From: a virus
Reading direction: 5' to 3' (one strand)
IMG/VR virus record: IMGVR_UViG_3300028028_000001
Span: 32,001-96,000 of that record
Length of the DNA: 64,000 nt
In this document: positions 1 to 63,374 of the stretch, one piece after another
Layout: the number at the start of each line of letters is the position of its first letter
How positions within the stretch are numbered: the first letter of the stretch is position 1
Position numbers and translations under genes: made by a program
Notes under the pieces: generated by a model
What the model was told of the DNA's origin: nothing
Seen by the model: the letters and a program-made list of their open reading frames with translations, nothing else
The model's database searches: none

Positions 1-1314
1 CGCTGGGGGTCCGTGTTTGATGCGGTTCAGGGCTCCACTGGCGACTCCGAGAAAGCGGCTCGGGTGGCTTGGGGGGTGATGAGGAAGGCTATCATGGCGG
101 TCCGTGTTCCAGGCCATACCAGAAACGGACACTATGTGAAACCCTACCTGCGGATGATGGACCGCGCCGAGGCCCAGGCGGGACCAGGCGAGCGCATCGT
201 TTACCGGGCGTCCAACGAGAACGCTCCCGAGGTCGGTACGCACTACACCGAGCAGAAGGAGCACGCGGTCGCCTACACCGATAATTCTGGTTTCGGTGGC
301 TCAAAGGTCCATCGGTACGCGATCAAGCCGCAGAACGTGGCGGATACGGTCGGGGAGGAAAGGAACGGTCTTCGAGGACTGGCGCTTGCCTACCTGCGGG
401 CGCTCGACCCTGAAGACGCGGCAGAGGTGAAGGAGAAGACCAGAAGACGACTTGGCGTGGATGACGACGAGCGGATCACGTCGAAGCACGTCGCGCAGGA
501 TTGGGATGAGCGCGGGCTGACTCATGTCTTCCATGTTCTGGAGCACGATCCCCGGGTTGAACAGGCGATATCGCAGGTCCACGACTGGATCCGGTTTGAG
601 GATGATTTCCCCGAGGGGTCGATTACCTGGAAGCGTCTTGGTGGAGAAAAGCCGATGAACAAGGGTCTTGTACTGGAGGCCTCAGATACCAACCCCGCAG
701 TCAAGCGCTGGAAGCAGATCGATCGTGGCCACTCCGAGGAAGGGCACCGCTTCCTTTCGCGGGTCCATGCGGGCGGTGGGCAAATGGCCATCACCCAGGG
801 CCATGCGGACGAGCCGCACGTCAAGAGGCTCCTTCGAGAAAAGTTGATTCAACTCAAGAGGAACCCGGGTCACCACTGGAACGAGTACACGGCGCACCTC
901 ACGAAGGAGGGCACGAAGTACCATGAGGCCTATCGAGCCGCGCACGAGCAGACAGGAAAGCAGGAGAGCCTGTTCAAGGGCGTGGTCTGCATCTACATGA
1001 TCCGCAGTGACACGATGAGGAAAAGCATCCTTGAGAAGGCGGTTATCCCGGCGCTCGACATGGTTCCGGAGGACTTGGAGGAAGACGCTACCCCGAACAC
1101 CTGGACCGAGAACGGGTATACCGTCTCATGGCGACGGGGCAAGCGCGGGCATGGGTCGGTTACCTTCGAAGGGAACGGGCTGGCTATGCCGTTCGTGATG
1201 ACCGCTGCGGGCAAGAAGCACGCTCGGATCGTCGCAAGGGACGCGTCGGCGCTGTTGGCGAAGGGCAAGATCCCGCTTCTTGACGGGGTATTCAGGATGC
1301 GGAGAAAGACATGA
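1..1314 (+). CDS. Large-protein segment whose 5' end lies outside the window; ChaB-like motif plus one HxR hairpin motif
   Basis: Frame 1 is open from nt 1. 'GDSEKAARVAWGVMRKA' resembles the ChaB family. 'VRVPGHTRNGHYVKPYLR' matches a motif shared with the next four large proteins. The stop overlaps the next start (ATGA at 1311). Confidence 0.6.
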   Translation, partial: RWGSVFDAVQGSTGDSEKAARVAWGVMRKAIMAVRVPGHTRNGHYVKPYLRMMDRAEAQAGPGERIVYRASNENAPEVGTHYTEQKEHAVAYTDNSGFGGSKVHRYAIKPQNVADTVGEERNGLRGLALAYLRALDPEDAAEVKEKTRRRLGVDDDERITSKHVAQDWDERGLTHVFHVLEHDPRVEQAISQVHDWIRFEDDFPEGSITWKRLGGEKPMNKGLVLEASDTNPAVKRWKQIDRGHSEEGHRFLSRVHAGGGQMAITQGHADEPHVKRLLREKLIQLKRNPGHHWNEYTAHLTKEGTKYHEAYRAAHEQTGKQESLFKGVVCIYMIRSDTMRKSILEKAVIPALDMVPEDLEEDATPNTWTENGYTVSWRRGKRGHGSVTFEGNGLAMPFVMTAAGKKHARIVARDASALLAKGKIPLLDGVFRMRRKT

Positions 1315-3122
1315 ACCAGATCGCGAATCAGCCGGGCGTTCATCTTGACCATTTGAAGCATAGGTGGGTTCGAGATGAGGACGTGAAACCAGGCACGCGG
1401 TTTTATGTGCCTCACCATGAGGAATTGGACGTTCGGTCTGTCAAAGACGGGAAGGCAGAGGTGGGTTTGGTTGGCCACCCCATCACTGTGGACGTGCCTG
1501 AAAAGTCGGTGAAGTACTTTCATGCAGACATGCATGGGCAGTTGAACCACAAGCCCGATAGTGGCAACGAGCATGTTGACGCCGTAATTAGAGGGGAGGG
1601 TGAACACCTCGGCAAGGGCAACGACGGGATCGTTTATCGCCACGGGGAGAAAGTGGTCAAGGTCTCAACGACCGTCCCTTACCAGCCCTTCAACCGTGGG
1701 CAGCACAGGACTCCAGAGGAAGCCCTACGGCATCTTCAAAAGGAGCACGAGGCCCATACGGCACTCCAGGGGATTCCTGGCGTGCCCGAAGTGGATGGGC
1801 AAGAGCATGAGGGGCGATACTGGATGGTTAAGCCGCATCTTTCGCCTACTGGCGTGGTCGATGAAAAAGAAGCACATCAGGTGCGCGATTCCGTCCGGGC
1901 CATGCACGCGAAGGGATGGGTTCTGGGCGATACCGTGCAGGTTGGCCGAGACAAGTCGGGCGGCATCCAGTTCATGGACCTCGGGTCTGCTCACAAGTCG
2001 GATAGCGACTACCAAAGAGAGCACGACGAAGAAAGGTTGGCCTCGTTCTTCCATCTTCATCGGTTGAAGTACACGGATCCCCCTGCTGAAGTACAGAAAA
2101 AGGAGCGGGTAGCACGCACTCTCCTGGACATGGCCATCAAACACCAGGATCCGGAAAAGGTCAGGGCGCATCGTATTGAGTGGAAACGACTGGCGAGCGA
2201 ACACAGGATGAACCTCGTCAGAAAAGACGACTTCGACGGGATGATGGCGTTTGCGGACATTACCGATGCGATGGAGAAACGGCTTGAAAAGGCCATCTTC
2301 CTCAACGGCCAAAAGCGCAACCCCAAGGACTTCGACGAAGCCGCCCTATCTCAAGGCATCCGCGTGGAGATGGAGCACACCGACGATCCGAAGATCGCGA
2401 TAGAGATCGCGATGGATCACCTTGCCGAGCGTCCGGACTACTACGATCGGCTGGAAGAGATGGAAGCGAAGCCGATTCAAAAAGCCATCCTCTCCGGGAT
2501 CCGCTTTATGTACCTACTACGCAAGTCTCAGCTCAACCTCTTCGACTGGCACGGCGAACCCGTCCAGCACGAGCACCGCGAGCCGATCCCCACCAGGCCA
2601 CGCATGGGACCGGGCCCCCTGTTCGCCGAAGAGCGAGCGTCGGCGCCCGTGCATGCCCCGCTGCCCCCTATGCCTCCTCCGACCTCGCACACCTTCACCT
2701 CCAATATTCACGTCAAGAGCCACCTTCGGCGCCTGCCGTCGGGTGAAGTGGTGGAGGTAGCCGCGCACGAGAGAACAGCCGATCGGGTAACCCACGACGA
2801 TCCGAAGCCCCGGCAGACGAAGATCACAGAGTACGCCGACAAGCCGGCGCTCTTGAAGCCGCCTTCCATGGCACCGCAGCCCCGAGAGATGCCGAAGCCC
2901 TTCACGGAAGAGCAGTTAAAAGCGATTGGAGAGGCACGGGTGCGCCAAGAGGCGGCCGGCGGAACTCCGGGACAAGGAAGGCCCTGGGTACGATGGCCCA
3001 GCCAACCAGCGCCTCTCTGCTGCGAAAGCGGGGAGACTTGGGCCCGCGCACCGGGCAGCGGCAAAGAGCGCCCCGTGGACCTCGCAGGGCGTCCTGCTCC
3101 GATGGCAGCAACTGGCGATTGA
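1311..3122 (+). CDS. Multidomain protein: protein-kinase-like domain, DUF5661-like segment and the shared QLNLF/HxR module
   Basis: G-loop 'GKGNDGIVY', 'KVVKV', 'FMDLGSA' (DFG-like). 'RVEMEHTDDPKIAIEIAMDHLAERPDYYDRLEEME' is DUF5661-like. 'LRKSQLNLFDW...IHVKSHLRRLPSGEVVEVAAHER'. GC3 drops after about 2925, so the true 3' end is uncertain. Confidence 0.7.
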   Translation: MNQIANQPGVHLDHLKHRWVRDEDVKPGTRFYVPHHEELDVRSVKDGKAEVGLVGHPITVDVPEKSVKYFHADMHGQLNHKPDSGNEHVDAVIRGEGEHLGKGNDGIVYRHGEKVVKVSTTVPYQPFNRGQHRTPEEALRHLQKEHEAHTALQGIPGVPEVDGQEHEGRYWMVKPHLSPTGVVDEKEAHQVRDSVRAMHAKGWVLGDTVQVGRDKSGGIQFMDLGSAHKSDSDYQREHDEERLASFFHLHRLKYTDPPAEVQKKERVARTLLDMAIKHQDPEKVRAHRIEWKRLASEHRMNLVRKDDFDGMMAFADITDAMEKRLEKAIFLNGQKRNPKDFDEAALSQGIRVEMEHTDDPKIAIEIAMDHLAERPDYYDRLEEMEAKPIQKAILSGIRFMYLLRKSQLNLFDWHGEPVQHEHREPIPTRPRMGPGPLFAEERASAPVHAPLPPMPPPTSHTFTSNIHVKSHLRRLPSGEVVEVAAHERTADRVTHDDPKPRQTKITEYADKPALLKPPSMAPQPREMPKPFTEEQLKAIGEARVRQEAAGGTPGQGRPWVRWPSQPAPLCCESGETWARAPGSGKERPVDLAGRPAPMAATGD

Positions 3123-3819
3123 CCCTCGCCTGTTGGATGATGAGTTCGCCGACGACTTCCCCGGATACAAGAGCCCGAAGCTCCAGGCGGTCATCCAGGC
3201 CACGAAGGACCACCTGACGAATCACCCCGAAACCGGCGCCGTGCTTTTCTGTGAGTACAACGGCGGGATTGAGGCGATGAAGTCGAGCCTGATCGAGGAA
3301 GGCTACCGCCCCGAGGACATCGGGGTCTATACGGGCAAGGTGTCAAGCCAGCGGAAACGGCGCGACCTTCAGAACGACCTGAACAGCGGCAAGATCAAGA
3401 TCCTCCTTGGCAACACGGCGGCACTTGAGACGGGCGCGAACCTCCAGAAACGCGCTAACTTTGTCGCTCATCTCAACACGCCATGGGCCCCGGATCGGCT
3501 TGTCCAGTCAACCGGGCGAGTCCATCGGCAAGGGCAGGAACGGAAGGTTACCGTATTTCGCCCGACCGGATCCGAGGTAGAAGAACTCATCGAGCGCGTT
3601 GTCTCGCGCAAGCTCCTTCAATCCTCACAGGCGACCGGCGTAACGATGGCCGCTGACTCTCATGTAGCTGTCTCCATGCGCCGAAAGGGCCGCGAAAAGC
3701 TCGACTCCTCCACGATCGCGAAACTGCTGGGAATCGACCCGTCGCTGTTGTCGCAGAAGGGCGATGAAGCAGAACGCGAGGCCGCAGAGATCAAGGAAAT
3801 GAAGAAGAGGAAGAAATGA
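2926..3819 (+). CDS. SNF2/SF2 helicase C-terminal lobe only (motifs IV-VI); probably continues the upstream ORF by a frame change
   Basis: 'LLRWQQLAIDPRLL', 'KILLGNTAALETGANLQ', 'WAPDRLVQSTGRVHRQGQ'. No ATG start (TTG at 2926) and a 197-nt overlap with 1311..3122. High GC3 in this frame from about 2926. Confidence 0.65.
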   Translation: MERHGCAKRRPAELRDKEGPGYDGPANQRLSAAKAGRLGPAHRAAAKSAPWTSQGVLLRWQQLAIDPRLLDDEFADDFPGYKSPKLQAVIQATKDHLTNHPETGAVLFCEYNGGIEAMKSSLIEEGYRPEDIGVYTGKVSSQRKRRDLQNDLNSGKIKILLGNTAALETGANLQKRANFVAHLNTPWAPDRLVQSTGRVHRQGQERKVTVFRPTGSEVEELIERVVSRKLLQSSQATGVTMAADSHVAVSMRRKGREKLDSSTIAKLLGIDPSLLSQKGDEAEREAAEIKEMKKRKK

Positions 3820-5537
3820 ACGACTCCGAAGCCACGAATCTCCTGCGCGCCTTGGCCCCCGTCGGTGGGTCTCCTGGTGGGTTCGACCCCAAGAAGCGCC
3901 GCGTGCTCGTCATGCGGCTTCATCGGTATCTGGTGGAGGATGGCGGCTACATCCCAGCGTGGCTCAAGAACGAGGCGGCCGAGATGCGGAAGGGCGTGAT
4001 CCTTTACGTCGAGTTGCACAAGGCCGCTCAACTTGGGCTCTTCGGTGGTCAGGGTCGGGAGTTTCGCCCGGAGGTGCCGAAGCCGCATGGTGGTGGTAAG
4101 CCTCGTGGGCCGCAGCAGACCGGGATGACCTCGGGCGGGCTCTTCGGCACGGTCTGGGTCAAGGACCATGATCGGGTGGTGAATGGGCACGTCGAGCACG
4201 TTGACGGTCATGAGAGGAAGGTGGTGGGGAATGTCCACGCGCCCACGTTGACAGGAAAGGAGGAAGGTGGTAGGGTCGAGAGTGAACCTTCTCCGAAAGA
4301 GGAAAGCATGACCCGGCACCCTGACGCTCCGGAAGGATTCGAACCGGTTGACATGTCCATTCATGGAGCCCATAAGGCACCATCGAACGAAAAGGGGCAA
4401 CAGGGCTCTTTCAACTACTGGTATCCGACGCTGGAATCGGCTCGGGCAGGCCAGAAGCACCATGAAGAGCAGCAACGAGTAAAGGGGGATATGAAGCGGG
4501 CGCGGGAACATGAGAAGATCGCTCGCGGATCGGCAAAGTTCATTGAGGCTGAAACTCAACGAAGAGCAAAACTCGCGGCGGCAGAGATTCGGCGCACCGC
4601 TGTTCCTTTTGTTCACCCGAGTATCTATGAATATCGGGACTACATCAGAGAGCAGGGTGGTTTCGTGGAAGATGGTGGGTGGAAGGTGCCAGCCGCAGCT
4701 CACGCCGCCATTACGGAGCACATCGAGGAGCGGAATCGGAAATTGGCCATCAAGCGCCAAACGAAGCCATCAGTAACCCCACCGGTTCCGGCCGCACTGA
4801 AATACATACCCATACAGCACTCGAACACCTACGACTATCGGGAAGACATCAAGAAAGCCGGTGGTCGGTGGGACAATAACCAGCGGGTCTGGATGGTCCC
4901 GGAAAACAGGCATGCCGAACTAATCGCCAAGATGACGCCTGCGCCTGCGCCCCCTCCCGCAGCTCCTTTGCCGACGATCGCACCAGGAGAAAAGGAATAC
5001 ACCAGATTTGAGAATGGATCGCGTCGTATGAAGCCCGCTCATCCGTTGGCTGTCGGAGACGTGGTGTTTCGAGGGGATGGCGCAAACCGAACTTACCAGA
5101 CGGTCACGAAAGTAAGGCCTTCGCTCTTCCGTTCCGAAAACGATCAGGAGGACTTTGGAGAAACCGGAAGAGGTGCAGGTTGGTATCATCCGTATACCGT
5201 TCGACCTGCTACTGAGGAGGAATCGGCCAACCTCCGCGGCAAGCACGCAGAAGCAGACGCAAAGGTCAAGGCTGCGACTGCCGCAAAAATGGCGCTACAG
5301 TCAGCCATCCAGACGGCGGAATATCCGAAGAAGGCTGAACCATCAGGAGAGAGCATCAAGATTGGTCAAAATGAAACAATTCAGGTTGAGCCAGACCTTC
5401 AACACGCGTGGCACATCAAGTATAACGGTCGTGATGGCGACAACTGGGCCTACAACAACCTGGGCGGCCACTCGATCGCGCATCGGTTCCCAATGACTCC
5501 TGAACTATCAGGACACATCGAAGCGCTGAAAGTCTAA
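3816..5537 (+). CDS. Large hypothetical protein with the shared QLGLF/HxR module and two DUF5710-like repeats
   Basis: ATGA overlap at 3816. 'LHKAAQLGLFGG...VWVKDHDRVVNGHVEHVDGHER'. Repeats 'YEYRDYIREQGGFVEDGGWKVP' and 'YDYREDIKKAGGRWDNNQRVWMVP'. Confidence 0.75.
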   Translation: MNDSEATNLLRALAPVGGSPGGFDPKKRRVLVMRLHRYLVEDGGYIPAWLKNEAAEMRKGVILYVELHKAAQLGLFGGQGREFRPEVPKPHGGGKPRGPQQTGMTSGGLFGTVWVKDHDRVVNGHVEHVDGHERKVVGNVHAPTLTGKEEGGRVESEPSPKEESMTRHPDAPEGFEPVDMSIHGAHKAPSNEKGQQGSFNYWYPTLESARAGQKHHEEQQRVKGDMKRAREHEKIARGSAKFIEAETQRRAKLAAAEIRRTAVPFVHPSIYEYRDYIREQGGFVEDGGWKVPAAAHAAITEHIEERNRKLAIKRQTKPSVTPPVPAALKYIPIQHSNTYDYREDIKKAGGRWDNNQRVWMVPENRHAELIAKMTPAPAPPPAAPLPTIAPGEKEYTRFENGSRRMKPAHPLAVGDVVFRGDGANRTYQTVTKVRPSLFRSENDQEDFGETGRGAGWYHPYTVRPATEEESANLRGKHAEADAKVKAATAAKMALQSAIQTAEYPKKAEPSGESIKIGQNETIQVEPDLQHAWHIKYNGRDGDNWAYNNLGGHSIAHRFPMTPELSGHIEALKV

Positions 5538-5539
5538 TC

Positions 5540-5818
5540 GTGCTGCTTCTTTTCGTTCTCCTCCTCTCCTGCGCCCCAGAACCGCCAGAAGTCTGCAATA
5601 TGGTCTCCGTGCCCTGGGAGCGCTCGACGCTCAAGGCGATCGAGGTTTACCTCGACTACCTGCCCTGTGAGGCCACGATCGGCTGCGAGTCGCTTAACGG
5701 GACCGTGACGATTTACGACCTGGAGCCCGTTTGCGGAGTCGCCTGCCGGGTATACGGATCCTGCCGCCCGGACGAAACGCCGCTGGAACTTCGATACTCC
5801 GCGTGCGACTGCTCATAG
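5540..5818 (+). CDS. Small Cys-rich putative lipoprotein
   Basis: GTG start 3 nt after the previous stop. N-terminus 'MLLLFVLLLSC' has a lipobox-like LLSC. 8 further Cys. Confidence 0.5.
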   Translation: MLLLFVLLLSCAPEPPEVCNMVSVPWERSTLKAIEVYLDYLPCEATIGCESLNGTVTIYDLEPVCGVACRVYGSCRPDETPLELRYSACDCS

Positions 5819-6625
5819 CAGCGTAGTTTGCTCCCGCTCCTCATCCTGGCCCATTGGCAGACCTATCTGAACGCCAGCGGCCTCGATGCTCTCCAACCTG
5901 CGCGCCGCGATGTCGAGATAAGCCGGCTCCGTCTCGATCCCGATGTACTGGCGCCCAGAGAGTAATGCAGCCTCTCCGATGGCCCCAGAACCTGCGAAAG
6001 GGTCAAGGACCGTGCCGCCATGGGTCACGACGGAAACGAGCCACGCGCAGACCCTTGGGGGCTTTTCGGTGACGTGCTCGCGGTCCCTTGAAGACGCCTC
6101 GGTGACGTAACCGGGCAGGCAGCCGATCCCTGGTCTGTCGGTCGGCATCGGTCCAAGGGTTCCGACGGCGATGAATTCGCCCGGGTTCCAGAACCAGCCC
6201 ATCCGAGGCCTTGACGATCCGGGAGGCTTCAACCACGGGTGGATCCCGCGAAGGATGAACCCGCCCACTTGGAGCGCATCACAGACCGCGCCAACCTGCC
6301 GCCAGTCGGAAAAGACGCATGCCGGACTGCCGGGGAGCATGACCCGAGTCGCACGGGCCGCAATCTCCCCAAGCCAGATCGTGAAGGATCGCTGGTCTCG
6401 GTTGTCGCCTGCGAAGTTCGGAAGGTATTCGGCCTGCGCGGAATCGGAGCTGAGATACTTCTTGCGGGTGTCTAGCGTTCGATCACCACGGAAGGCACCC
6501 CCCGAAGAGTACGGGGGATCCGTGATCAGGGCGTCAACGCGGACGCGTTCGCGTTCGAGATCCGCGAGTACGAACAGGGAGTCGCCGTTGTAGAGTTTCC
6601 AGGTCTTTCCTTGGGCGTGTAGCAT
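5813..6625 (-). CDS. DNA methyltransferase, beta-class N6-adenine/N4-cytosine type
   Basis: Catalytic 'ITDPPYSSGG' precedes the SAM-binding 'VLDPFAGSGAIGEAA'. Opposite strand to all neighbouring genes. Confidence 0.9.
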   Translation of the reverse strand: MLHAQGKTWKLYNGDSLFVLADLERERVRVDALITDPPYSSGGAFRGDRTLDTRKKYLSSDSAQAEYLPNFAGDNRDQRSFTIWLGEIAARATRVMLPGSPACVFSDWRQVGAVCDALQVGGFILRGIHPWLKPPGSSRPRMGWFWNPGEFIAVGTLGPMPTDRPGIGCLPGYVTEASSRDREHVTEKPPRVCAWLVSVVTHGGTVLDPFAGSGAIGEAALLSGRQYIGIETEPAYLDIAARRLESIEAAGVQIGLPMGQDEEREQTTLL

Positions 6626-6667
6626 GGTGGAAGTGTAACACGTTGCATGGAGAGGTCAAGGTGGCAC

Positions 6668-6702
6668 GGTCTTTGCTACACCTTTCAGTGAAAGGAAAGA
6701 CC
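6668..6702. promoter_or_regulatory. Nested hairpin in the divergent intergenic region; possible operator or RNA structure
   Basis: GGTCTTT...AAAGACC encloses CCTTTC-agt-GAAAGG. Lies between the divergently transcribed MTase and + strand genes. No promoter consensus could be assigned. Confidence 0.25.
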
Positions 6703-6790
6703 ATGGAAACCCTCATCGCGGCGGGATCGGCTCCGGCCATCCTCATGTCGAGTTCTTCGTTCCCGTCTACCGAATCCACGCGAGCAAGCC

Positions 6791-7006
6791 ATGACCTGCC
6801 CCCGCTGCCACCAGCAATTCACCCCGACAGCAGAGGAGTCCAAGTGCCCCGACTGCGAGCGGGAGATCCTTCGTCGCAGGTACGAGATCGCCAGGATCCG
6901 CCGACATGGCGAGACCTGGCTTCTCGTCTCCCCGCGCCATGTTCTCGCGGGTGGGTTCGCCTCGCGCGAGCAGGCCGAGAGGTTCCGTTCCGCCAGGGTG
7001 GGGTAG
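6791..7006 (+). CDS. Small zinc-ribbon protein
   Basis: 'CPRC...CPDC' pair. ATG start. The stop lies 8 nt before the next ATG. Confidence 0.55.
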   Translation: MTCPRCHQQFTPTAEESKCPDCEREILRRRYEIARIRRHGETWLLVSPRHVLAGGFASREQAERFRSARVG

Positions 7007-7013
7007 ATCCGGA

Positions 7014-7511
7014 ATGGACCTCTTCAACCATCAAGGCGCCGTCTTCTCGGAGGATCGCGTCTACCGCTATCGGCTCTGGCGGCATCCTCCTGATACCCGG
7101 TTCGCCGCGTTCATCGGGCTCAACCCGAGCACCGCTGACGAAACCCAGAACGACCCGACCGTGACCCGTTGTATCGGGTTCGCTCGGTCGTGGGGTCTTG
7201 CGGGCATGGAGATGTTGAACCTTTACGGGTTTCGCTCGACGGATCCCGATCCGATGTTCAAGCACTCTGCTCCTATAGGACCGGGCAACGACGAGGCGAT
7301 CCTGGCGGTCGCTCGTGAGGCGTCGATCGTGATCGGCTGCTGGGGCGCGTTTCCTCAAGCCCGCATCCGTGCTATCGAGGTTCATAGGATGCTTTCCTCT
7401 GCCGGTATCGTGCTTCATGCTCTGCAATTGACTTCGCAGGGTTGGCCTCGGCATCCTCTCTACCTCTGCCGAGACCGGGAGCCCTTTCCATGGAGGATCC
7501 CTGCGGGGTAA
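7014..7511 (+). CDS. DUF1643 family protein
   Basis: 'VYRYRLWR...FIGLNPSTADETQNDPTVTRCIGFA...GWPRHPLYL' is typical of DUF1643. Start moved to ATG 7014 from the ORF-track 6906. Confidence 0.8.
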   Translation: MDLFNHQGAVFSEDRVYRYRLWRHPPDTRFAAFIGLNPSTADETQNDPTVTRCIGFARSWGLAGMEMLNLYGFRSTDPDPMFKHSAPIGPGNDEAILAVAREASIVIGCWGAFPQARIRAIEVHRMLSSAGIVLHALQLTSQGWPRHPLYLCRDREPFPWRIPAG

Positions 7512-7537
7512 AGAGGTAACACCATTCGAGGGTTCCC

Positions 7538-9871
7538 ATGCACCTCTATCGCCCCGTTCGATCCGCTGACGGTTCTCTTTCGCTACGTGCCTCGGAACTG
7601 GTCTTCCGTCGCCCCGATGTGGCCCCCCGCGAGCTGCGCAAGGCCCTTCGTCTTCCGATCGGCATCGGCTGGCGTGACATCGACCAGGACGTGGACGGTG
7701 GCAAGGAGAAGAGGATCGTGGAGTGGGGAACGGTCTCCCGCTACTGGCCCTCACTCGAAGCCGCCATGGCCGCAGAACGGCGCTACCTGATCCTCGGGTC
7801 GCAGGATGACGGCTACGGGATTCCCCAGGTCGAGCGGCCCGGGTCGGTCCAGGCCTGGGAAGCACGGGAGCGCGCCCGTTCGGCTCATGAGATGGTGATC
7901 TACTACTCGCCCGACGGGTGGACGGCTCTTGCTGGTGACGAGCACGGTGGGCAGGTCAAGGTGCTCGACGACTGCCGCGCGTACCGCTGGCCCTCGCTCA
8001 TGGACGCGCTCTCTGCTGAGACGGCGTGGAGAGAGAAGGCGGACGCCGCGACCCTCAAACAGGTCCAGGCCGAAGCGCGCGGTGGAGAACCGAAGCCTTC
8101 GTTCTACGGTTACGGCGCGTTCATGGACGCGGCGCGGAAGTGTGCGGAGTTCATGGCGCTTGCGGATCCGGGTGTCGGGGCGCCTCTCGTTCGGTTCACG
8201 GTGGACCTTCGCAAGGCCGCTCAAATGGGGTTGTTCGGAGGGGAGACACGGATCCCGGAGCGGTCGCATCAAATGGGCCTCTTCGGTGGGACCGCGCACG
8301 TCAAGGCGCATACCCGGGTGGTCCATGGGCATGTGATCGAGGTGAAGGCCCATGATCGGGAGGTCGAGCATGGGGCGAACCATCCTCCCGAGGTGATGGG
8401 GCACTCGGCGCCGGGACATCGGGTGGATGTGGATGCGAAGGTGGCATGGCCAGAAGTCAAAGAAGGCAACCTGTACCGCATCCATTTCGACACCCGCGAC
8501 GAAGGCCAGCCGCACGGCGACTATATCGCCAAACGAGCCTCGACGAATCATCACCAGTTCGAGAACCTTCTCAACGGCGCCCCCATGATGTTGAACCGGG
8601 ATGCGGAAGGGCAGGGGAAGCACAGTCTGAGCGGCAAGGAAGGTGTCAGGATCCGAAGCGTTACAGGGTTTGAGGATGCTCTGGATGAGGCGAAAGCCAA
8701 GCATGAGATCATCCGAAAGGACGCGGAACGGGCGGCTTTGGCACCGAAGGTTGAGGAGAAGCCCTCCATTTCCGTCGATCCGGCCCAAATCGTCAAACCA
8801 GCGGACATTCAACCACCGGGCCCCATTCGTGACTACACCGACATGAAGCCATCGGTCGGTATGAAGGTTCACGGGCACTACATGCGGTCACCCTTCACCG
8901 GCACGGTCCATAACATCGAATCCGACTCAAGCGGATACCCTGGCACCCAGAACGATCGCAGGTTGTGGGTGAAACTTGATAGCCCCCTGGTGGTCCCGGA
9001 AGGTGATTCGTCATACCCCGCCGGTCACGTTCGGCGCGAGGCAGGGGAAAGCATCATTTTCCACGGGGAAAAACAGGCGTCAGGACATACACGGGTTCAT
9101 CATGACACCCATCAAACCCTGGATTCGGTAGATAATCCGCTTCCTGGGTTGGTGCCCTTCGTAACAGACTACGATTCACGAAAGAAAACCCATACCCTGT
9201 CCGTGAACGGGAAGATGTCGAGCCATCCGACGCATGAAGCCGCGTTTGCTGCGGGGATGGAGGAGGTCAAGCCCACAACGCAACTTATCACCGAAGATGA
9301 GCTGAGAGAGCAGACCATCAAGCCCCCACCCAAGCCCACCCTATCCGTCAAACCTGCGGAAATCGTTCAGGTTATACCGGGTATGGAGCACGAACATCCG
9401 GACTTTCCAGGCCACCGGTTGACCCGTGTGCAAACCCGGGAGAGGGACATCAGTTCCCGTGGTCGGGGACATGATTTATACACAATGATTGCCGGCCCAG
9501 AAGATGACACAATGCACTGGAGCGACAAGCATGTTGGCCATGAAGTAATTTCGGACGATTATCCAAGGTCAAGGTCCATACGATCAAGCGATAGACATGG
9601 TGAAACCTATGCGCATATGCCGCTCAAGCCCGGTAGTGTGATTATGCGTCTCAAAAAGAATACCGACGGGACAACCCAGAAGTCTGCGTTAGTTGTTCCG
9701 GAAAGTGGAGGAGACACATACCCAAGACACAAAGATCAACCACTGGACGCCGATAGTTTGCCGTCTGCAACGGTAACCTCACGCAAAGCGGCTACTGGAT
9801 GGGAAACTGTAGTAGATATCCCCGAAGGGATATCGGGTGTCAAGGCTGGTAAGCGAATTTACCGAGGATAG
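7538..9871 (+). CDS. Large hypothetical protein with a duplicated QMGLF motif plus the HxR module
   Basis: 'LRKAAQMGLFGG...SHQMGLFGGTAHVKAHTRVVHGHVIEVKAHDR'. The last ~500 nt have visibly lower GC. Confidence 0.75.
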   Translation: MHLYRPVRSADGSLSLRASELVFRRPDVAPRELRKALRLPIGIGWRDIDQDVDGGKEKRIVEWGTVSRYWPSLEAAMAAERRYLILGSQDDGYGIPQVERPGSVQAWEARERARSAHEMVIYYSPDGWTALAGDEHGGQVKVLDDCRAYRWPSLMDALSAETAWREKADAATLKQVQAEARGGEPKPSFYGYGAFMDAARKCAEFMALADPGVGAPLVRFTVDLRKAAQMGLFGGETRIPERSHQMGLFGGTAHVKAHTRVVHGHVIEVKAHDREVEHGANHPPEVMGHSAPGHRVDVDAKVAWPEVKEGNLYRIHFDTRDEGQPHGDYIAKRASTNHHQFENLLNGAPMMLNRDAEGQGKHSLSGKEGVRIRSVTGFEDALDEAKAKHEIIRKDAERAALAPKVEEKPSISVDPAQIVKPADIQPPGPIRDYTDMKPSVGMKVHGHYMRSPFTGTVHNIESDSSGYPGTQNDRRLWVKLDSPLVVPEGDSSYPAGHVRREAGESIIFHGEKQASGHTRVHHDTHQTLDSVDNPLPGLVPFVTDYDSRKKTHTLSVNGKMSSHPTHEAAFAAGMEEVKPTTQLITEDELREQTIKPPPKPTLSVKPAEIVQVIPGMEHEHPDFPGHRLTRVQTRERDISSRGRGHDLYTMIAGPEDDTMHWSDKHVGHEVISDDYPRSRSIRSSDRHGETYAHMPLKPGSVIMRLKKNTDGTTQKSALVVPESGGDTYPRHKDQPLDADSLPSATVTSRKAATGWETVVDIPEGISGVKAGKRIYRG

Positions 9872-9874
9872 CCC

Positions 9875-12800
9875 ATGTTCACCCCCTGCAAGTGCTCCAA
9901 AGGCTGCAAGGCCCACGCCATCATCACAGCGCTCGACATGGACGGGACCACCTACCCTGTGCGAGTCCCCTATGAGCACCGCTACTCCTCGATCGGCTGG
10001 GGCGACCGTCCGCGCGTGCGGTTCGGTGATTCCGTAGCCGTCGAAGTGGCGCGCGGAGAGAAGGGCGTCCAGGCTCTTGACGAACTCGGCAACCTTCACC
10101 GGTTGAACCATGGCGCGTTCTCCACCTGGATTCCGGAAAGGAAGGGCAAGGCTCTCAAAAAGGCGGAAGTCAAAGCCGGTCAACGATGGATCACGGTCCA
10201 CCCCGGCGGCGAAGGCTCAACGGGCGTCCCCATCCTGATTCAGGAGGAGAAGGACGGAACCCACCGAGTCGTGGCAGGCGCGGGCGGGAAACTGACGCAC
10301 CTCCGGCTTGAGAACGTCAAGAGCGCGGACGAATACGCCAAGTCCAAAGCCGACAAGAAGGCCGCAAAGAAAGAGAAGGACAAGACCGCTCCGAAGGAAG
10401 TCAAGGAGACCAAGAAGGAAGCCCACGAGAAGAAGCGCGAGGCCGAGCGCCAGTTCGTCAAAAAGGTGAGCACGAAACTCGGGGGAGTCTCCGAGGATCG
10501 CAAGCGTGACGAATCCGAATCTCCCGCCGTCGCACGTCGGCTTGACGCGCAGCATCATCGAAAGCAGGTCAACGAGGCCAAGAAGCGCGCCCACGGAGCC
10601 ATGCAGGCGGTCGTTGCAGAGCGGACCGGGCAGGAGAGGGCAAAGGCGCTCACCTCCGAGGATACTCCCGAGGTCTCCGCTCACGTTCAGGAAACGATTC
10701 GCGCAGAACTCGACGACGAGGAAGCCGCTCAGAAGGCGCGCAAGGAAGCCCGCGCGCCAAAGATGATGGCCTCCCGGGCCGTGGACCCCGGAGCGCAAGA
10801 GAAAGCCGTCGTCCATGCCGTTGAAGCGGTCAAGCAGGCCCCTGAGCAGCTCGACAAGACACTTGAAGCGCTCGGCGGGCGTACTGACTCGGGCGAGGTT
10901 CTCCGGCTCTCTGTCGTGCCTGCCGTGGAGGCGAAACGCCGGTCCCTGCAAGCGCTCCAGGACGCCCAGATCATCCATGAAGCCCTATCGAACGGGCCCC
11001 CGAAAGACGAGAAGCAGCAGGCGATCGTGGAGCAGGCCCTGGGCGGCGCGAAACTCGGAACCGAGGAGGCCAAGGAAGCACTCCAGACCGCCATGGTCTC
11101 GAAGGTCAACGAAGCCGAGCGGCACGAAGTCCAGTCCAGGAAGCTCGACCAGATCGCACGGGACAAGGGCGAAGACGTGGCCGACCGTGCTCTCCGGGCG
11201 ACCGACGCGGCAAGGGCCATCGCTCGCGAAACACAGGAAGCGCGGCGCCTGGGACTCGACAATCCCGAGAAGACGCCCCTTACTGTGCCTGAAACCGATG
11301 AACTCATGGACGTGGTGAAGGACCTCCAGGACCTGAAAGCGAAGACCCGAGCCCTGAAGAACGTCGTCAAGGACGCGGAAAAGGGCAACTTCGATCGGTC
11401 GCGCCGTGCGTTCAAGATGGACGTTCAAGCGGCCCCCAAAGACGTGGAGATGTCGATCGAGGAAGAGGTTCAGCGCTCACTCACGGAGCAGCTCCTCGGC
11501 GCGGTCAAGACCGATCGCCCGGAGTACATCCAGGGCGTCACCGCTGGGCACTATGACGCCCTCGCGGATGTCGGCTTGCAGATTGGCGGCCAGCGCTACC
11601 TGGACCGCCCCACGGTGGACGCTCTCGGCGCGAAGAATGCCGCGATCCTACTCCGGTATGGGCTTGACCAGGACGGGCACGATATGGACGCCGTTCGCCA
11701 GGCCGTGGAAGAGTCGCACGTTGACGCGGTGAAAACCGAAGCCGCCAAAGCCATCGAGAAAGCGCGATCCTACGTCCCTGGGTTGGTCCACGAAGTCGAT
11801 ACAACCGAAGACGCCGAAGCAGCAATGGCGCACTTGGACGCCCACGAATCCGAGATCGTCTCAGCGCAGAAGGCCCTTTCCTCGGCGATCGGGAGGCTCG
11901 AAGGTACGGCTACCCTTGGCCAGGCGCTGCGCGACAAGATGCCCGATAGCCTTTCCGTTCGGGGCACCTCTCTTGAATCGTCTCAGCAGTGGGTTCATTC
12001 GCTCGGGCTTCACCCTGCCGATTACGAGGTGAACGCTGCACGGAACGAGATTACGATCCCCCGCCGATCGTGGGACAAACTGCTATCCCGAGACTCGCGC
12101 GAGGACATCGACAACCGGCGCGTGGTCAACGAGATCAAGGCAGGTCAGCACGACATCAAGGGTTGGCTTCCTCCCGGCATTGCCTATCGAGAGGCCTCCA
12201 CGTTCACCGCGCCCGTTCCCAGCGCTCCTCGCATGTGGGAACCGCTTTCGTTCGATGGCGACCTCGACGAGGCCATCAAGACACACGTCGGCGCCCGGTT
12301 GGCATCCGGTGAGCATATCGGGGAGATTGCGTCTGACATCTCCTCGGAAGGTGTTGCTTCGCAGGCCCCGAGCGCGAAGGAATACCGCGCGGCACTCGAG
12401 CGGCACTTCCCTCTCTACAAGGAAGGTGGAAAGGAACGGCTCACCGAAGCCCTGGCGGCTCTTGGACCTCGGCCGGAGAACGAGAACGAGGCGATCGAGT
12501 GGGACCGAAAAGCCATTAAGGCGGAGCAAGCGGAAAAGGTAGGCCTGACGCACTTCGCCGACAAGTGGGAGTCCTGGGCCCAGGACTACATGGAAAAGAA
12601 GCACGGTGGCGAGGGAGCCTATCACTCGCAGAACCTGCATCCCGAGGACGTGGCGACCCGTGAGGCCATTTTCCGGACGCTGGCGGATCACCCGGAGGGC
12701 AAGATCGCCTTCAAGCCGTCGGGTCAACTGACACCGCAGGAAGAGGGGGTGATTCGGGACCGGTACTATCAGAGGATGGGGATCGACCCGAAGGTGAAGG

Positions 12801-15577
12801 TTGACGAGGCAAGGTTCCAAAGGGAGATGGCCCAGGCCAGTATGCCGGAAGGGCAGTGGGAGACCATGGTCAAGGAACACGAAGGAGAAGGCATAACTCC
12901 AGGGCAGGCCAAGGCCCGAGCCATGTCTCACCTTGGAGAGAAGGTCAAGAATGAGGCGTATTACCAAGAACTGACGAAACCATGGGACAAGACGGCTGGA
13001 ACTGCATCTATAGACGAACCAAAGGATGTAAAACAACGTCGCCAATACCTGACGCGCGAACTCGCCGCACTCGGGAAAGAGCCCGACCGCCAAGACAAAG
13101 AGGCCAACCAGAAATGGCAAGAAGCGCGTAATGCTGTTTTTGAAAAGGCCGACACCGATTCTGGCAAGGAAGAACTTGATGAGACCAGTCCCGAATACCG
13201 GGCTTGGCAAAAACGACGTGATGCTGTTCTTGCCCGTCATCCGCGAGCGGGTATGCAAAGCGCAATCGATAGTCTCGACAAAGCCGATCCGGAGTACGCA
13301 AGCAAAGTCGAAGCCATCAAACAGGACGCAGCGACCGCCCCCACCGCCTGGGGCAACTACGTTGAAGCGCACGGTTCGCGGCAACTGGCGATCGAGGCCC
13401 TGCAAGATGAGATGAGGGGCGAATTCGTCAAGACGTACCAGGAGCACCACGGAAAGGTCACCGGGAACCCGCTACGGGTGGGCGTTCAGGACGTAACCAA
13501 CAAGGCGCGCCATATCCGGGCAACAGGATCCCCCGAGGAAATCGCGCAAGCCAGGGCAGAGGAAAGGTCCAGGCTATCCAGTCTCCAGAAGAGGCAGGGC
13601 GGCGGATTTACCGAGATGGGCGGTGCAGGGTCGGCGAAAGCCCTGTTCACAAAAGCACTTGAACAAGACGAAATCGACAAGTCAAGTCAACTCGCTATGT
13701 TCGGATCGGCTACCTCCTCGGTGGCGGACCTCCCCGAAAAGAAGATCGAGCCGAAGACCGGCCAGCGGTGGAGTCTCGGAACCCGCGCGGAATCGCAACT
13801 TGAGAGCGTCATCAATGGCGGCCTGGGCCAGCAGTTTCAACCAGGAAGCCCGATCCGGCTTTTCGGTGGGCTCAACATGGATGGCGATCGAATCCACCAG
13901 CAGCGGGTTCTTCGCCAACTCGATCGGGTCAAAAGGATGGCGGCGCTTCTCGGCACGGGCGCGGGGAAGTCGCTCACCTCGATCGCAGGGTTCACCCAGG
14001 CGCACGCGAAGGGTGAGGCATCCCACGGGCTCTATCTGGTCCCTGCCGCAGTCCAAGACCAGTTCGGCGGCGAGATGTTGCGCTACACGCAGCCCGGGAA
14101 ATACAACTGGGCAACGGGTGGCGGAAAGAGCCACGCGGAACGGGTACGGATGCTCAAGGATCCGTCTATTCATATGCGGGTTATGACACACCAGTCCTTC
14201 CGGGATACTGCCCTAAAACTCATGGCAGACCACCATGGTCGGACTACCGAGAAGATGACAGAGGACTTCGGAAAGGCAGACCCAAAGACCCGCGCCCGGT
14301 GGATGCGTGAGGCCTTCGATGCCCACGGGATCCCCCGCCACTTCGTCTATTATGACGAGGCGCACACCGCGACCTCCGAGAACGAGAAGAGCGCCTCTCT
14401 GACTCATGACGTTGCGACGGCGGTAACGCATCCGTCGAACGCTACCCATCTGCTTCTCGGGACCGCCACCCCCACGAAGAACAACACCGGAGAGATGCAC
14501 TCATGGGCCTCGCTACTCGATCCGGACAAGTACGCCGATCGGTGGAAGTTCATGCAGAACTTTGGGAGGGAAACCGCCTGGAACCCGAACGCGATCCGTC
14601 AAGAACTTGGGCACCGGGTTTACACCGCCAGAATCGACCCCGAAGGAGTATCCCGAACAGACACCGACAACCCGACCGTGGAGGAAAAGGAAGTCCAGAC
14701 TGGTGAGAATATGTGGGGTCCAACCTACGAAAAGCAGAAGGTGAAGTCTGCCGGCAAGCCGATCGAACTTCACCCTACCCAGAAGGCCCGGGTAGATGAG
14801 ATCACGGCGGCTTATGAGCAGGCATCCACCTCGTTCAAGAAGGGCCATGTGGACGTGGAGAGCATCCGGAAAATCAACCCGGCACCGTTCGAGGGTAAGA
14901 CCGATGAGCAGGCCCAAAGCATCGCGCGGAACATGATGAAGGGCCTTGGCTTCACCCGTGACGCGGCGCTGGAGCGGGCGATCAACCGCTCGCCTGTGGG
15001 CCAGAACGCGAAACTGGACGCCCTGGCCTCTGTCGTCCAGCATGACCTCGCGCAGAACTGGACCGATCGGAAAGGCAACGCGCGCAAGGGGAAGGCCTCG
15101 ATCATCTTTTCGGACTCGGCGCAGGATGGAAAACTCATCAACCAGCACCTTCGCTCTCTTGGCGTCCGCTCGGCTTTCTATCACGGTGGGCTTCCGAACG
15201 AGCAGAAAGAAGCCATCCGCACCGGGTTCCAACCCGAGCAAGGCGAGCCGAAGCACGACGTTATCGTCGCCACGTCGGCGGCCGAGGCGGGTCTGAACCT
15301 CCAACGGGCAAGCGTGCTGCACAATTACGACGTGCCCCAGACTGAGAAGAGCCACGCGCAGAGAGCCGGGCGAGCGTACCGGCAGGGGCAACTTGGCGAC
15401 GTGGAGATTCACAACTGGCACACGAACACGGCGTTCGAGCGTCGGGCGCTTCAACTGCTCAAGGAGAAGCGGTATCTCGCTTCCGTGTTTCAGACTCCGA
15501 TCGGCCATATGGACGACACAGGAACGGGCCTGCGTTATACTCGGATCATCTCACGCAAACATGAGGCTGCGGCATGA
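9875..15577 (+). CDS. 1900-aa SNF2-family helicase with long N-terminal extension (polyvalent/DarB-style architecture)
   Basis: 'GTGAGKSLTS' (Walker A), 'YYDEAHTA' (motif II), 'LLGTATPTKNN', 'ATSAAEAGLNLQ', 'QRAGRAYRQGQ'. N-terminal 'RWITVHPGGEGSTGVPILI' and a K/E/A-rich coiled region. Confidence 0.9.
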   Translation: MFTPCKCSKGCKAHAIITALDMDGTTYPVRVPYEHRYSSIGWGDRPRVRFGDSVAVEVARGEKGVQALDELGNLHRLNHGAFSTWIPERKGKALKKAEVKAGQRWITVHPGGEGSTGVPILIQEEKDGTHRVVAGAGGKLTHLRLENVKSADEYAKSKADKKAAKKEKDKTAPKEVKETKKEAHEKKREAERQFVKKVSTKLGGVSEDRKRDESESPAVARRLDAQHHRKQVNEAKKRAHGAMQAVVAERTGQERAKALTSEDTPEVSAHVQETIRAELDDEEAAQKARKEARAPKMMASRAVDPGAQEKAVVHAVEAVKQAPEQLDKTLEALGGRTDSGEVLRLSVVPAVEAKRRSLQALQDAQIIHEALSNGPPKDEKQQAIVEQALGGAKLGTEEAKEALQTAMVSKVNEAERHEVQSRKLDQIARDKGEDVADRALRATDAARAIARETQEARRLGLDNPEKTPLTVPETDELMDVVKDLQDLKAKTRALKNVVKDAEKGNFDRSRRAFKMDVQAAPKDVEMSIEEEVQRSLTEQLLGAVKTDRPEYIQGVTAGHYDALADVGLQIGGQRYLDRPTVDALGAKNAAILLRYGLDQDGHDMDAVRQAVEESHVDAVKTEAAKAIEKARSYVPGLVHEVDTTEDAEAAMAHLDAHESEIVSAQKALSSAIGRLEGTATLGQALRDKMPDSLSVRGTSLESSQQWVHSLGLHPADYEVNAARNEITIPRRSWDKLLSRDSREDIDNRRVVNEIKAGQHDIKGWLPPGIAYREASTFTAPVPSAPRMWEPLSFDGDLDEAIKTHVGARLASGEHIGEIASDISSEGVASQAPSAKEYRAALERHFPLYKEGGKERLTEALAALGPRPENENEAIEWDRKAIKAEQAEKVGLTHFADKWESWAQDYMEKKHGGEGAYHSQNLHPEDVATREAIFRTLADHPEGKIAFKPSGQLTPQEEGVIRDRYYQRMGIDPKVKVDEARFQREMAQASMPEGQWETMVKEHEGEGITPGQAKARAMSHLGEKVKNEAYYQELTKPWDKTAGTASIDEPKDVKQRRQYLTRELAALGKEPDRQDKEANQKWQEARNAVFEKADTDSGKEELDETSPEYRAWQKRRDAVLARHPRAGMQSAIDSLDKADPEYASKVEAIKQDAATAPTAWGNYVEAHGSRQLAIEALQDEMRGEFVKTYQEHHGKVTGNPLRVGVQDVTNKARHIRATGSPEEIAQARAEERSRLSSLQKRQGGGFTEMGGAGSAKALFTKALEQDEIDKSSQLAMFGSATSSVADLPEKKIEPKTGQRWSLGTRAESQLESVINGGLGQQFQPGSPIRLFGGLNMDGDRIHQQRVLRQLDRVKRMAALLGTGAGKSLTSIAGFTQAHAKGEASHGLYLVPAAVQDQFGGEMLRYTQPGKYNWATGGGKSHAERVRMLKDPSIHMRVMTHQSFRDTALKLMADHHGRTTEKMTEDFGKADPKTRARWMREAFDAHGIPRHFVYYDEAHTATSENEKSASLTHDVATAVTHPSNATHLLLGTATPTKNNTGEMHSWASLLDPDKYADRWKFMQNFGRETAWNPNAIRQELGHRVYTARIDPEGVSRTDTDNPTVEEKEVQTGENMWGPTYEKQKVKSAGKPIELHPTQKARVDEITAAYEQASTSFKKGHVDVESIRKINPAPFEGKTDEQAQSIARNMMKGLGFTRDAALERAINRSPVGQNAKLDALASVVQHDLAQNWTDRKGNARKGKASIIFSDSAQDGKLINQHLRSLGVRSAFYHGGLPNEQKEAIRTGFQPEQGEPKHDVIVATSAAEAGLNLQRASVLHNYDVPQTEKSHAQRAGRAYRQGQLGDVEIHNWHTNTAFERRALQLLKEKRYLASVFQTPIGHMDDTGTGLRYTRIISRKHEAAA

Positions 15578-16246: not shown

Positions 16247-16284
16247 CCCTACCCGGATCCCCTCCCGGGTAGGGCCTTCTTTTG
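16247..16284 (+). terminator. Rho-independent terminator
   Basis: Perfect 10-bp stem CCCTACCCGG/CCGGGTAGGG, 8-nt loop, then CCTTCTTTTGTT. Confidence 0.75.
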
Positions 16285-16293
16285 TTGGTACTC

Positions 16294-44202: not shown

Positions 44203-44274
44203 TGGACCCGGTGGGAGTCGAACCCACGACATCCTGCTTGCAAGGCAGGCGCTCTCCCGCTGAGCTACGGGCCC
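44203..44274 (-). tRNA. tRNA-Ala (anticodon UGC)
   Basis: Hand-folded cloverleaf: GGGCCCG/CGGGTCC acceptor with G3:U70, anticodon loop CUUGCAA, T-loop TTCGACT, discriminator A. CCA is not encoded. Confidence 0.9.
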
Positions 44275-63319: not shown

Positions 63320-63374
63320 TGTGCTTCCTTTGTTTTTGGGGCTTTGTTTTTTGTAGAAGTGTCCGAAGGGAAGA

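Follow-up and report, generated by a model that had tools for sequence, protein, structure and literature searches.

Sliding clamps are universal in the hosts of phages and mobile elements, and the TnsE protein of Tn7 is a mobile-element protein that uses the clamp of its host. The transposases of insertion sequences (PMC4549789) and the MuC protein of phage Mu late transcription (PMC12867686) are likewise parasite proteins placed on DNA by a clamp-binding motif. This bacterial motif, with the consensus QL[S/D]LF (Dalrymple 2001), takes the canonical form Q-phi-x-[L/M]-[F/L] or the hexameric form Q-phi-x-[L/M]-x-[F/L], and peptides of the type QLxLF bind tightest (PMC11139829). Here, we describe such peptides in a stretch of 64,000 nucleotides of viral DNA (IMG/VR record IMGVR_UViG_3300028028_000001, positions 32,001 to 96,000), referred to as the window. 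They lie in the linkers of large proteins encoded in the head module of an uncultured phage that also encodes its own beta clamp. Judged from the sequence, they are real, selected short linear motifs of head-module polyvalent linkers; we tentatively regard them as functional and the sliding clamp as their most likely partner.

The other systems that stand closest are the clamp of phage T4 and the polyvalent proteins. The T4 clamp gp45 is a phage-encoded hub whose clients gp43, gp33, gp55 and T4 ligase bind by their C-terminal tails (PMC6212786, PMC2988020). It is a PCNA-like trimer that recognizes other peptides and serves replication and transcription clients, whereas the peptides described here belong to probable head cargo. 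The polyvalent proteins were catalogued by their globular domains, and self-processing of the zincin type was proposed for them (Iyer et al. 2017; PMC5512222). Neither the linkers nor QLxLF are mentioned in that work, in which the word 'clamp' has no occurrence.

The six pentapeptides pointed out in an initial annotation of the window are all found in frame with long plus-strand open reading frames (ORFs):

961-975, plus strand: QESLF in ORF A
2529-2543, plus strand: QLNLF in ORF B
4029-4043, plus strand: QLGLF in ORF C, with GG next
8222-8236 and 8270-8284, plus strand: QMGLF twice in tandem in ORF F, each as QMGLFGG
13688-13702, plus strand: QLAMF in ORF G, with G next, about 65 amino acids (aa) before the helicase

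The sites are represented by the 15- to 20-residue peptides LRKAAQMGLFGGETR, LHKAAQLGLFGGQGR, LLRKSQLNLFDWHGE, DKSSQLAMFGSATSS and TGKQESLFKGVV. QLGLF is the motif of Pol II and QLNLF that of Pol V (UmuC), as the annotation had correctly stated (2024 review, PMC11139829). QMGLF and QLAMF conform to Q-phi-x-[LM]-F, and five of the six peptides have the strict form Q[LM]x[LM]F. The exception is QESLF, whose position 2 is non-canonical under the E. coli rule. Its five residues are those of the clamp motif that was removed from Mycobacterium smegmatis DinB1 (PMC9346131), a match that is pertinent because the source contig was deposited as a metagenome-assembled genome of the Thermoleophilia (Actinomycetota). 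The five ORFs A, B, C, F and G, 4,309 aa in all, contain the strict form five times, against a mean of 0.029 in composition-preserving shuffles, none of which (0 of 2000) attained five copies. The motif is thus far above chance, as had been claimed from an estimate of about 0.06 expected copies. It is absent from the remaining 13,973 aa of likely genes of the window and from all its other six-frame ORFs of at least 60 aa (80,402 aa).

The proteins that carry the peptides, with the helicase and a helicase fragment among them, are encoded as follows:

1..1314, plus strand: ORF A, 456 aa, starting 56 nt upstream of the window, without Pfam or PHROG family
1311..3122, plus strand: ORF B, 603 aa, with DUF5661 (aa 346-387) followed by the linker cassette
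3133..3819, plus strand: stand-alone DarB-like helicase C-terminal domain, 228 aa, directly after ORF B
3816..5537, plus strand: ORF C, 573 aa, with the cassette near its N-terminus and a weak DUF5710 match (aa 339-372)
7538..9871, plus strand: ORF F, 777 aa
9875..15577, plus strand: ORF G, 1900 aa, of polyvalent type
13895-15493, plus strand: SNF2/SF2 helicase at the C-terminus of ORF G (aa 1341-1873), matching phrog_62

The five ORFs lie behind the portal gene and ahead of the scaffold-like and capsid genes, a region in which effectors destined for packaging are encoded. In order, the genes are TerL, portal, a putative MuF-like ORF, the 820-aa ORF, A, B, the DarB-like fragment, C, F and G, followed 3' of G by an ORF at the protease position, the scaffold-like ORF, the major head protein and then tail genes; the genes upstream of the window were read from the related Logan contig L001. 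Because of this head-gene setting, and because of the helicase of G with its match to phrog_62, DUF5661 in B and the DarB-like fragment, the five proteins can tentatively be classed as head-module polyvalent-type proteins sensu Iyer et al. 2017. They resemble the catalogued polyvalent proteins (PMC5512222) in the DarB-type SF2 helicase of G and in their head-gene neighbourhood, and the DUF5661 of B co-occurs in protein P0012 with InPase, ART-PolyVal and LPD1. In contrast to the zincin-type self-processing proposed in that work, the proteins of the window showed no zincin domain. Pfam and PHROG gave no recognised domain in ORFs A, C and F beyond the weak DUF5710 match in C. Among 5.8 billion proteins, full-length F matched itself only, and exact-sequence look-ups of ORF A and of the ORF at 61742-63409 returned no record. 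A ChaB-like reading of the N-terminus of ORF A found no support in Pfam and was set aside.

The initial annotation had taken the copies to be homologous, which holds for a linker cassette of about 70-110 aa in B, C and F only, the motifs of G and A standing in other contexts. In BLASTP comparisons among the five proteins, residues 65-216 of C matched residues 222-362 of F (E = 2e-10) and residues 370-521 of B matched residues 38-181 of C (E = 3e-4), and nothing beyond this short region was shared. The cassette begins with an alternating hydrophobic strand (LVRFTVDL, VILYVEL, IRFMYLL) that runs into K-A or K-S. After 0-1 residue (0 in B) comes Q-[LM]-x-L-F, mostly with G-G next, and then a spacer of very variable length that often contains a second GLF or PLF. 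The cassette ends on a basic, His-rich hairpin, h-V-K-x-H-x-R-x3-4-G-x-V-x-x-V-x-x-H-x-R. In ORF A, VMRKA is followed by a hairpin-like segment, and QESLF precedes a similar hydrophobic strand and ILEKA. The motif of ORF G lies outside any cassette, in the low-complexity stretch that precedes the helicase. The elements are placed as follows:

2484..2810, plus strand: cassette of B, with IQKA, the strand GIRFMYLLRKS and QLNLF
2607-2624, plus strand: GPGPLF in the cassette of B
2706-2774, plus strand: His-rich hairpin IHVKSHLRRLPSGEVVEVAAHER in the cassette of B
3987..4265, plus strand: cassette of C, with the strand GVILYVELHKA and QLGLF
4131-4148, plus strand: SGGLFG in the cassette of C
4152-4217, plus strand: hairpin VWVKDHDRVVNGHVEHVDGHER in the cassette of C
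8177..8392, plus strand: cassette of F, with the strand LVRFTVDLRKA and tandem QMGLFGG
8297-8359, plus strand: hairpin HVKAHTRVVHGHVIEVKAHDR in the cassette of F
76-90, plus strand: VMRKA site at the N-terminus of ORF A
100-153, plus strand: hairpin-like VRVPGHTRNGHYVKPYLR of ORF A, after VMRKA
976-1005, plus strand: hydrophobic strand KGVVCIYMIR of ORF A, after QESLF
1027-1041, plus strand: ILEKA site of ORF A, after QESLF and the strand

The His-rich hairpin (VKAHxRKTxxGxxxVxxHxR) occurs widely as an element in its own right and is found in polyvalent linkers of phages of all GC classes. In low-GC metagenome contigs, several small ORFs in the neighbourhood start with it (M-x-x-VKAHTRKTKKG...); the loci of the hairpin outside the window are L054, L062, L075 and L014-L029. 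The hairpin is possibly a DNA-binding or packaging tag. Other conserved short peptides take its place after K-A, such as RWITVHPGG..G.PILI in G (aa 104-124, window 10184-10246), GGPYIGPRGGKW, HKYIKRTGxPGxYxYxY and GSRGGKYYVNEKGVVRYG (P0012 aa 414-430; ORFs of L005, L006 and L011). This suggests that modules start with members of a family of small, exchangeable beta elements.

The K-A that precedes the motif belongs to a wider pattern, h-x-K-A, mostly with V, I or A next, which recurs in the head module:

76-90, 1027-1041, 2475-2486, 4014-4025, 8207-8218 and 10151-10165, plus strand: h-x-K-A at linker boundaries of A, B, C, F and G
16282..17079, plus strand: ORF at the usual prohead protease position, with two h-x-K-A sites
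17069..17746, plus strand: acidic scaffold-like protein, 225 aa, with six h-x-K-A-[V/I] sites
17778..19379, plus strand: major head protein (phrog_752)
17844-17858, plus strand: SMNKA followed by VTSS at the N-terminus of the major head protein (aa 23-27), a candidate propeptide cleavage site

The pattern thus occurs six times in the scaffold-like protein, once in the major head protein and twice in the ORF at 16282-17079, and hardly any copies lie in the replication genes or in about 7,000 aa of tail proteins. The pattern stands directly before the motif in F (LRKA/AQMGLF) and C (LHKA/AQLGLF), and as K-S in B (LRKS/QLNLF). Since it is repeated in the scaffold-like protein and found at the N-terminus of the capsid protein, h-x-K-A is probably the site of a maturation protease, with a logic similar to that of the h-x-A/S sites of assemblin-type proteases. 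No prohead protease gene was recognised at the expected position, the ORF at 16282-17079 having no Pfam, PHROG or PDB sequence match that would support such an identity. The other loci fetched for comparison included no scaffold genes in which the pattern could be checked.

The motif was then followed in relatives. Two homologues, P0002 and P0003, were found for the C-terminal 750 aa of G. P0002 (42% identity to G over 98% of the query) has, at the same place before its helicase, four tandem motifs (QAGMFG, QTGMFG, QPAMFG and QSSMFG), within 45 residues (aa 118-165) and with Pro/Ala/Glu spacers, and the C-terminal tail of P0003 reads QANLFGG...NDLFG, i.e. two LFG motifs. Motif copy number therefore appears to change quickly between homologues of G. 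The cassettes of B, C and F also served as a profile for an exhaustive search, which returned few proteins, the true matches being P0012, P0015 and P0016. These are polyvalent proteins with InPase, DUF5661, ART-PolyVal, LPD1, HATPase and C5 methylase domains, and their linkers hold QMGLF, QVGLF, QLGLF, QLALF, QMGMF, QPGLF and again QLALF. An alignment of 11 linkers gave nothing at E <=0.01 against the index of 5.8 billion proteins, the profile being too short.

A scan of IMG/VR DNA for the pattern KAxQ[LM]G[LM]FGG gave ten loci, at least eight of which lie in large ORFs at domain boundaries. A second scan, of IMG/VR and then of metagenomes, was anchored on the hairpin VKAHxRKTxxG and not selected on the motif. 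It provides the sole unbiased set for the invariance of Q and F; instances in neighbouring ORFs were found with the regular expression Q..[LMF]F, which makes both residues invariant by construction. Among the 40 distinct hairpin linkers of this second scan, Q-x-x-[L/F]-F is found within a dozen residues upstream in nine of the ten from contigs with a GC content of at least 0.63 (QLSLF, QLGFF, QMSLF, QLGLF, QLELF, QQGLF) and in none of the 30 from lower-GC contigs. In the latter, the hairpin directly follows h-h-x-K-[S/A] or forms the N-terminus of small ORFs. Because these low-GC relatives keep the cassette of strand, K-A and hairpin without QLxLF, the pentapeptide looks like a separable add-on with a function of its own, dispensable for any role of the cassette in packaging or cleavage.

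Within one phage lineage of IMG/VR, seven paralogous linkers have diverged (QLGLF, QLELF, QLGLF, QMSLF, QLGFF, QLSLF, QQGLF); all of them keep Q..LF, and their flanks differ (GPRKAE, KRAR, GGPSQ, GT, GGQTT, GGQST, AQ). Other ORFs of the motif loci contain QLNLF, QLALF, QVRLF, QMSMF and QLGLF, and the hexamer QLALDF is found in equivalent linkers of two phages. In a set of 35 instances found without seeding on the motif, Q and F do not vary, which for the regex-found ones follows from the search pattern. L or M occupies position 2 in 21 of the 35 and position 4 in 34; the residues seen at position 3 are G, A, S, N, E and R, and 21 instances have G at position 6. The Gly-Gly after the motif can be absent, as in QLELFKRAR. 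The key positions Q1, L/M4 and F5 are kept among varying flanks in P0002, P0003, P0012, P0015, P0016 and the hairpin-anchored linkers, a small and partly regex-found sample. The conservation of these residues in homologues, a point raised by the initial annotation, is thus seen in a few homologues and many analogous linkers, while the flanks and position 3 drift. The independent lineages concerned are few: the window phage, the group of P0012, P0015 and P0016, one TARA contig and perhaps six lineages from IMG/VR or metagenomes.

The domains that follow the motif are often DNA enzymes, such as SNF2 helicase (G, P0002, L008, L019), C5 DNA methylase (P0016, L019), type IB topoisomerase (L007) and Mom (L009); GNAT and domains without a name are also found there. 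The IMG/VR carrier ORFs, together with P0012, P0015 and P0016, include LPD1, InPase, ART, ddrB-ParB, GNAT and methylase domains. The topoisomerase of the viral contig L007 (7026-8801) is of the eukaryotic type (Pfam Topoisom_I, E = 2e-28), and its N-terminus is the cassette LRKAEQIGLFGG.

The initial annotation had also called the contexts of the motifs probably disordered. Indels and Gly runs speak for this, as does the lowest model confidence around the motifs; both AlphaFold2 (AF2) models are of low confidence overall and give weak support for coil at most. For G, aa 1151-1900 were modelled from a three-row alignment (two homologues), with a mean predicted local distance difference test score (pLDDT) of 45 and values of 80-88 in helicase segments; residues 91-187 of the model, including QLAMF at 122-126, are coil at pLDDT 23-27. 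For F, aa 1-400 were modelled from the single sequence (mean pLDDT 37), and residues 230-295 are coil at pLDDT 20-27. The models suggest disorder of the motif regions, and the evidence for flexibility that comes from the sequences appears the stronger: the spacers between motif and hairpin range from 2 to more than 50 residues, some are rich in Pro, Glu and Lys, and up to eight Gly follow LF (L011).

The presence of a beta clamp gene in the same genome, stated by the initial annotation, is confirmed by all three Pfam beta-clamp domains and a match to PDB 4tr8 (E = 4e-38). The gene lies in the minus-strand half of the window, among replication-type genes that include SSB, an SF2 helicase and methylases:

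55724-56791, minus strand: beta sliding clamp DnaN, 355 aa from ATG, with an alternative GTG start at 56899
59695-60153, minus strand: SSB, with the acidic tail DDDPVPF at its end
53388-53969, minus strand: ThyX-like ORF
52074-53102, minus strand: C5 methylase
49246-51228, minus strand: SF2 helicase
45543-46505, minus strand: DUF5131
44701-45594, minus strand: radical SAM protein

DnaN is 30% identical to the E. coli clamp overall and keeps 15 of the 18 residues of its peptide pocket, as listed in a review (PMC11139829); the E. coli reference sequence was identical to PDB 1mmi. The substitutions are H175S, V344L and M364I, and position V344 is not conserved according to the same review (PMC11139829). 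The phage clamp is genuine, and its peptide pocket is intact. The tail of SSB is acidic like the hub peptide of its family. Such a tail is the classic peptide through which SSB serves as a hub for its partners, and since SSB with DDDPVPF and DnaN are both encoded, the phage brings two replication hubs. No DNA polymerase or clamp loader was recognised near DnaN (window 42000-64000, minus strand), and a DNA polymerase may lie elsewhere on the 96.7-kb contig, in the approximately 24 kb beyond the sequence analysed.

In every respect visible in the sequence, the motif matches the grammar of beta-clamp binding. The Gln is invariant, position 2 is aliphatic, position 3 is free, position 4 is L or M, position 5 is Phe, a hexamer occurs occasionally and the context is flexible, which are the features of the bacterial motif (Dalrymple 2001; PMC11139829), including its variable position 3, its hexamer variant and its flexible sites. 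The QxxMFG form seen here resembles the internal QADMFG of Pol III alpha. Clamp docking is favoured because of this fit, because the motif looks like a separable add-on, and because a clamp with an intact pocket is available in the phage and in every host.

In the mechanism proposed for clamp docking, the maturation protease would cut at h-x-K-A, and Q-L-x-L-F would then stand within 1-2 residues of a freshly made, flexible N-terminus. Hda offers a parallel, its QLSLPL lying in a disordered N-terminus (PMC11139829); here, the N-terminal place would come from the proposed proteolysis. After delivery or expression, Gln and Leu would enter subsite II and Leu-Phe subsite I of a beta clamp, which may be that of the host or the phage DnaN with its conserved pocket. 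The contact would tether the attached module, often a DNA enzyme, to clamp-loaded DNA, so that the purpose would be recruitment to DNA and not blockade of the clamp. A more specific picture is doubtful but worth stating: in a high-GC phage lineage, the capsid would carry a 'tool-belt' of DNA enzymes, cut at h-x-K-A and exposing QLxLF and hairpin, which would load at infection onto clamps on the incoming or replicating genome; virion-borne anti-defence effectors would then be clamp clients of a new kind.

Several observations weigh against clamp docking. The strong preference for Gly at positions 3, 6 and 7 exceeds what clamp binding needs, and the motif stands beside a probable processing site and is confined to head-module proteins. 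None of the replication proteins of the window has a canonical motif from which the client grammar of the phage clamp could be read. The tie to the phage's own DnaN that the initial annotation had drawn is not general, as DnaN did not turn up in those parts of the other motif-bearing contigs that were fetched; the only one in the fetched loci is on L025, a contig without QLxLF. In tblastn, the F cassette had no match in cultured phages or PLSDB plasmids, and the pattern LxKAxQ[LM]G[LM]FGG gave five hits in 596 Gbp of reference genomes, all of them antisense- or tiny-ORF-like, with no prophage or integrative and conjugative element (ICE) among them. A strict form restricted to viral contigs is equally expected of an assembly signal. 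The poor AF2 models also count on this side.

The main alternative, a serious though less likely one, is that QLxLF(GG) docks on the capsid or scaffold, or is an exosite for the maturation protease, its likeness to clamp motifs being coincidental. The motif stands 1-2 residues after h-x-K-A, a site shared with the scaffold-like protein (six times) and the capsid N-terminus and rare elsewhere; every carrier is a head-module or polyvalent protein; and the restriction to viral contigs in the searches above fits as well. Encapsulin cargo-loading peptides and the capsid-targeting sequences of T4 and P1 are short, Gly-rich, hydrophobic and borne on flexible tails, and they direct cargo into an HK97-fold shell. 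The Gly-rich hydrophobic preference of the motif resembles such peptides, and location by a maturation cleavage site is common to these signals and to the cassette. The encapsulin consensus (e.g. GSLxIGSLK) has no invariant Gln, however, and an invariant Gln with alternation of pentamer and hexamer is what clamp binding specifically predicts and is not foreseen for a peptide that docks by hydrophobic contact. Moreover, the low-GC relatives have strand, K[AS] site and hairpin without QLxLF, so that packaging and cleavage would be independent of it. The h-x-K-A sites of the scaffold-like and capsid proteins are not followed by QLxLF, and neither the motif of G nor the tandem repeats of P0002 adjoin K-A.

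It is improbable that the pentapeptide is a loop between the strand and the hairpin of a beta mini-domain, multiplied by common descent and without a dedicated partner. The cassettes of B, C and F are indeed homologous, strand and hairpin could make a three-stranded sheet, and Gly after Phe suits a turn. Yet the motif of G lies outside a cassette and has become four repeats in the 42%-identical P0002, the spacer between motif and hairpin varies from 2 to more than 50 residues with Gly/Pro runs, strand and hairpin are intact where the motif is absent, and the seven paralogous linkers of one phage keep Q..LF amid diverged surroundings. This explanation fits the data poorly.

Slightly less credible still is a blockade in which QLxLF occupies the pockets of the host clamp and stops host replication and repair while the phage uses its own DnaN. 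Phage proteins that inhibit the staphylococcal clamp exist, and the evidence from the motif itself is the same as for docking. The phage clamp with its H175S, V344L and M364I substitutions and the several copies per protein in F and P0002 would also be in keeping with a blockade. However, the pocket of the phage clamp is almost unchanged and would be blocked too, the attached enzymes would gain from tethering, and the other motif-bearing contigs show no DnaN in their fetched parts. A few copies of virion cargo per infection would face hundreds of clamps per cell, which makes the blocking of host clamp clients, put forward by the initial annotation as the other outcome of docking, stoichiometrically unattractive. 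As to the two QMGLF copies of F, their binding to both pockets of one clamp dimer was considered and set aside, the 11 intervening residues being estimated as too short.

A cohesion of cargo in the head, by self-association or condensation through GLFG/MFG in Gly/Pro-rich spacers like that of nucleoporin GLFG repeats, is very improbable and fits the data poorly. In its favour, GLFGG is common and MFG is repeated four times within 45 aa of P0002. Against it, Gln and not Gly is invariant, QLELFKRAR, QLNLFDW and QLALFDP lack flanking Gly, and most proteins have 1-2 copies. Cleavage of the LxGG type (DUB/PLpro-like) at LFGG was rejected, the GG not being conserved (QLELFKRAR, QLNLFDW).

The remaining features concern the genome at large. 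The window, a single phage-like genome, has an even composition (GC 0.57-0.63) and one tRNA. This tRNA-Ala (TGC; 44203-44274, minus strand) lies between the structural and replication arms. The plus-strand run of the head module is broken between C and F by an N6/N4 DNA methylase (5813-6625, minus strand) and a DUF1643 gene (6906-7511, plus strand). The DarB-like fragment at 3133-3819 is without motor domain, and the last approximately 65 codons of ORF B overlap a longer alternative-frame ORF (2926-3819) that runs into it; possible explanations are a frameshift, decay of a helicase gene or the splitting of a gene. On L001, the Ala/Gly/Thr/Val-rich 820-aa ORF between the putative MuF-like gene and ORF A (6108-8567) has no family match and looks like a fibre or decoration protein, in an odd place inside a head module.

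Clamp motifs in virion-module effectors would be new, while the motif itself and the use of the clamp by mobile elements are known. As the initial annotation had surmised, no clamp motif in polyvalent or virion proteins was found in open-access text. A review of jumbo phages ('polyvalent protein' and 'clamp') does not connect the two topics, and QLGLFG-type strings in a phage context yielded nothing relevant in the open-access literature. The known clamp clients are replication and repair proteins; unlike them, the carriers described here are polyvalent proteins of the head module, with up to four copies of the motif per linker and with a strong preference for Gly at positions 3, 6 and 7. Insertion sequence transposases, MuC and TnsE are each a single regulatory or transposition protein made in the cell, whereas here a set of probable virion-cargo modules is concerned.

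The domain catalogue of polyvalent proteins is known and their linkers have been ignored; how injected effectors find their targets is an open question. If the linkers bind the clamp, these effectors would be addressed to clamp-loaded DNA, which would explain how the few molecules of each virion can act in cis on phage DNA. In practical terms, the grammar of h-x-K-A, QLxLF and hairpin offers a parser of uncharacterised giant phage proteins into modules, and if the peptide turned out to be a capsid-targeting signal instead, it would be useful for loading cargo into phage heads. If binding is true, the clients of the clamp would gain a large new class in the virion-module effectors, and susceptibility to phages could be altered by inhibitors of the clamp pocket or by variants of the clamp. 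If the capsid does carry such a tool-belt, the clamp would be a hub exploited by phages from the first minute of infection.

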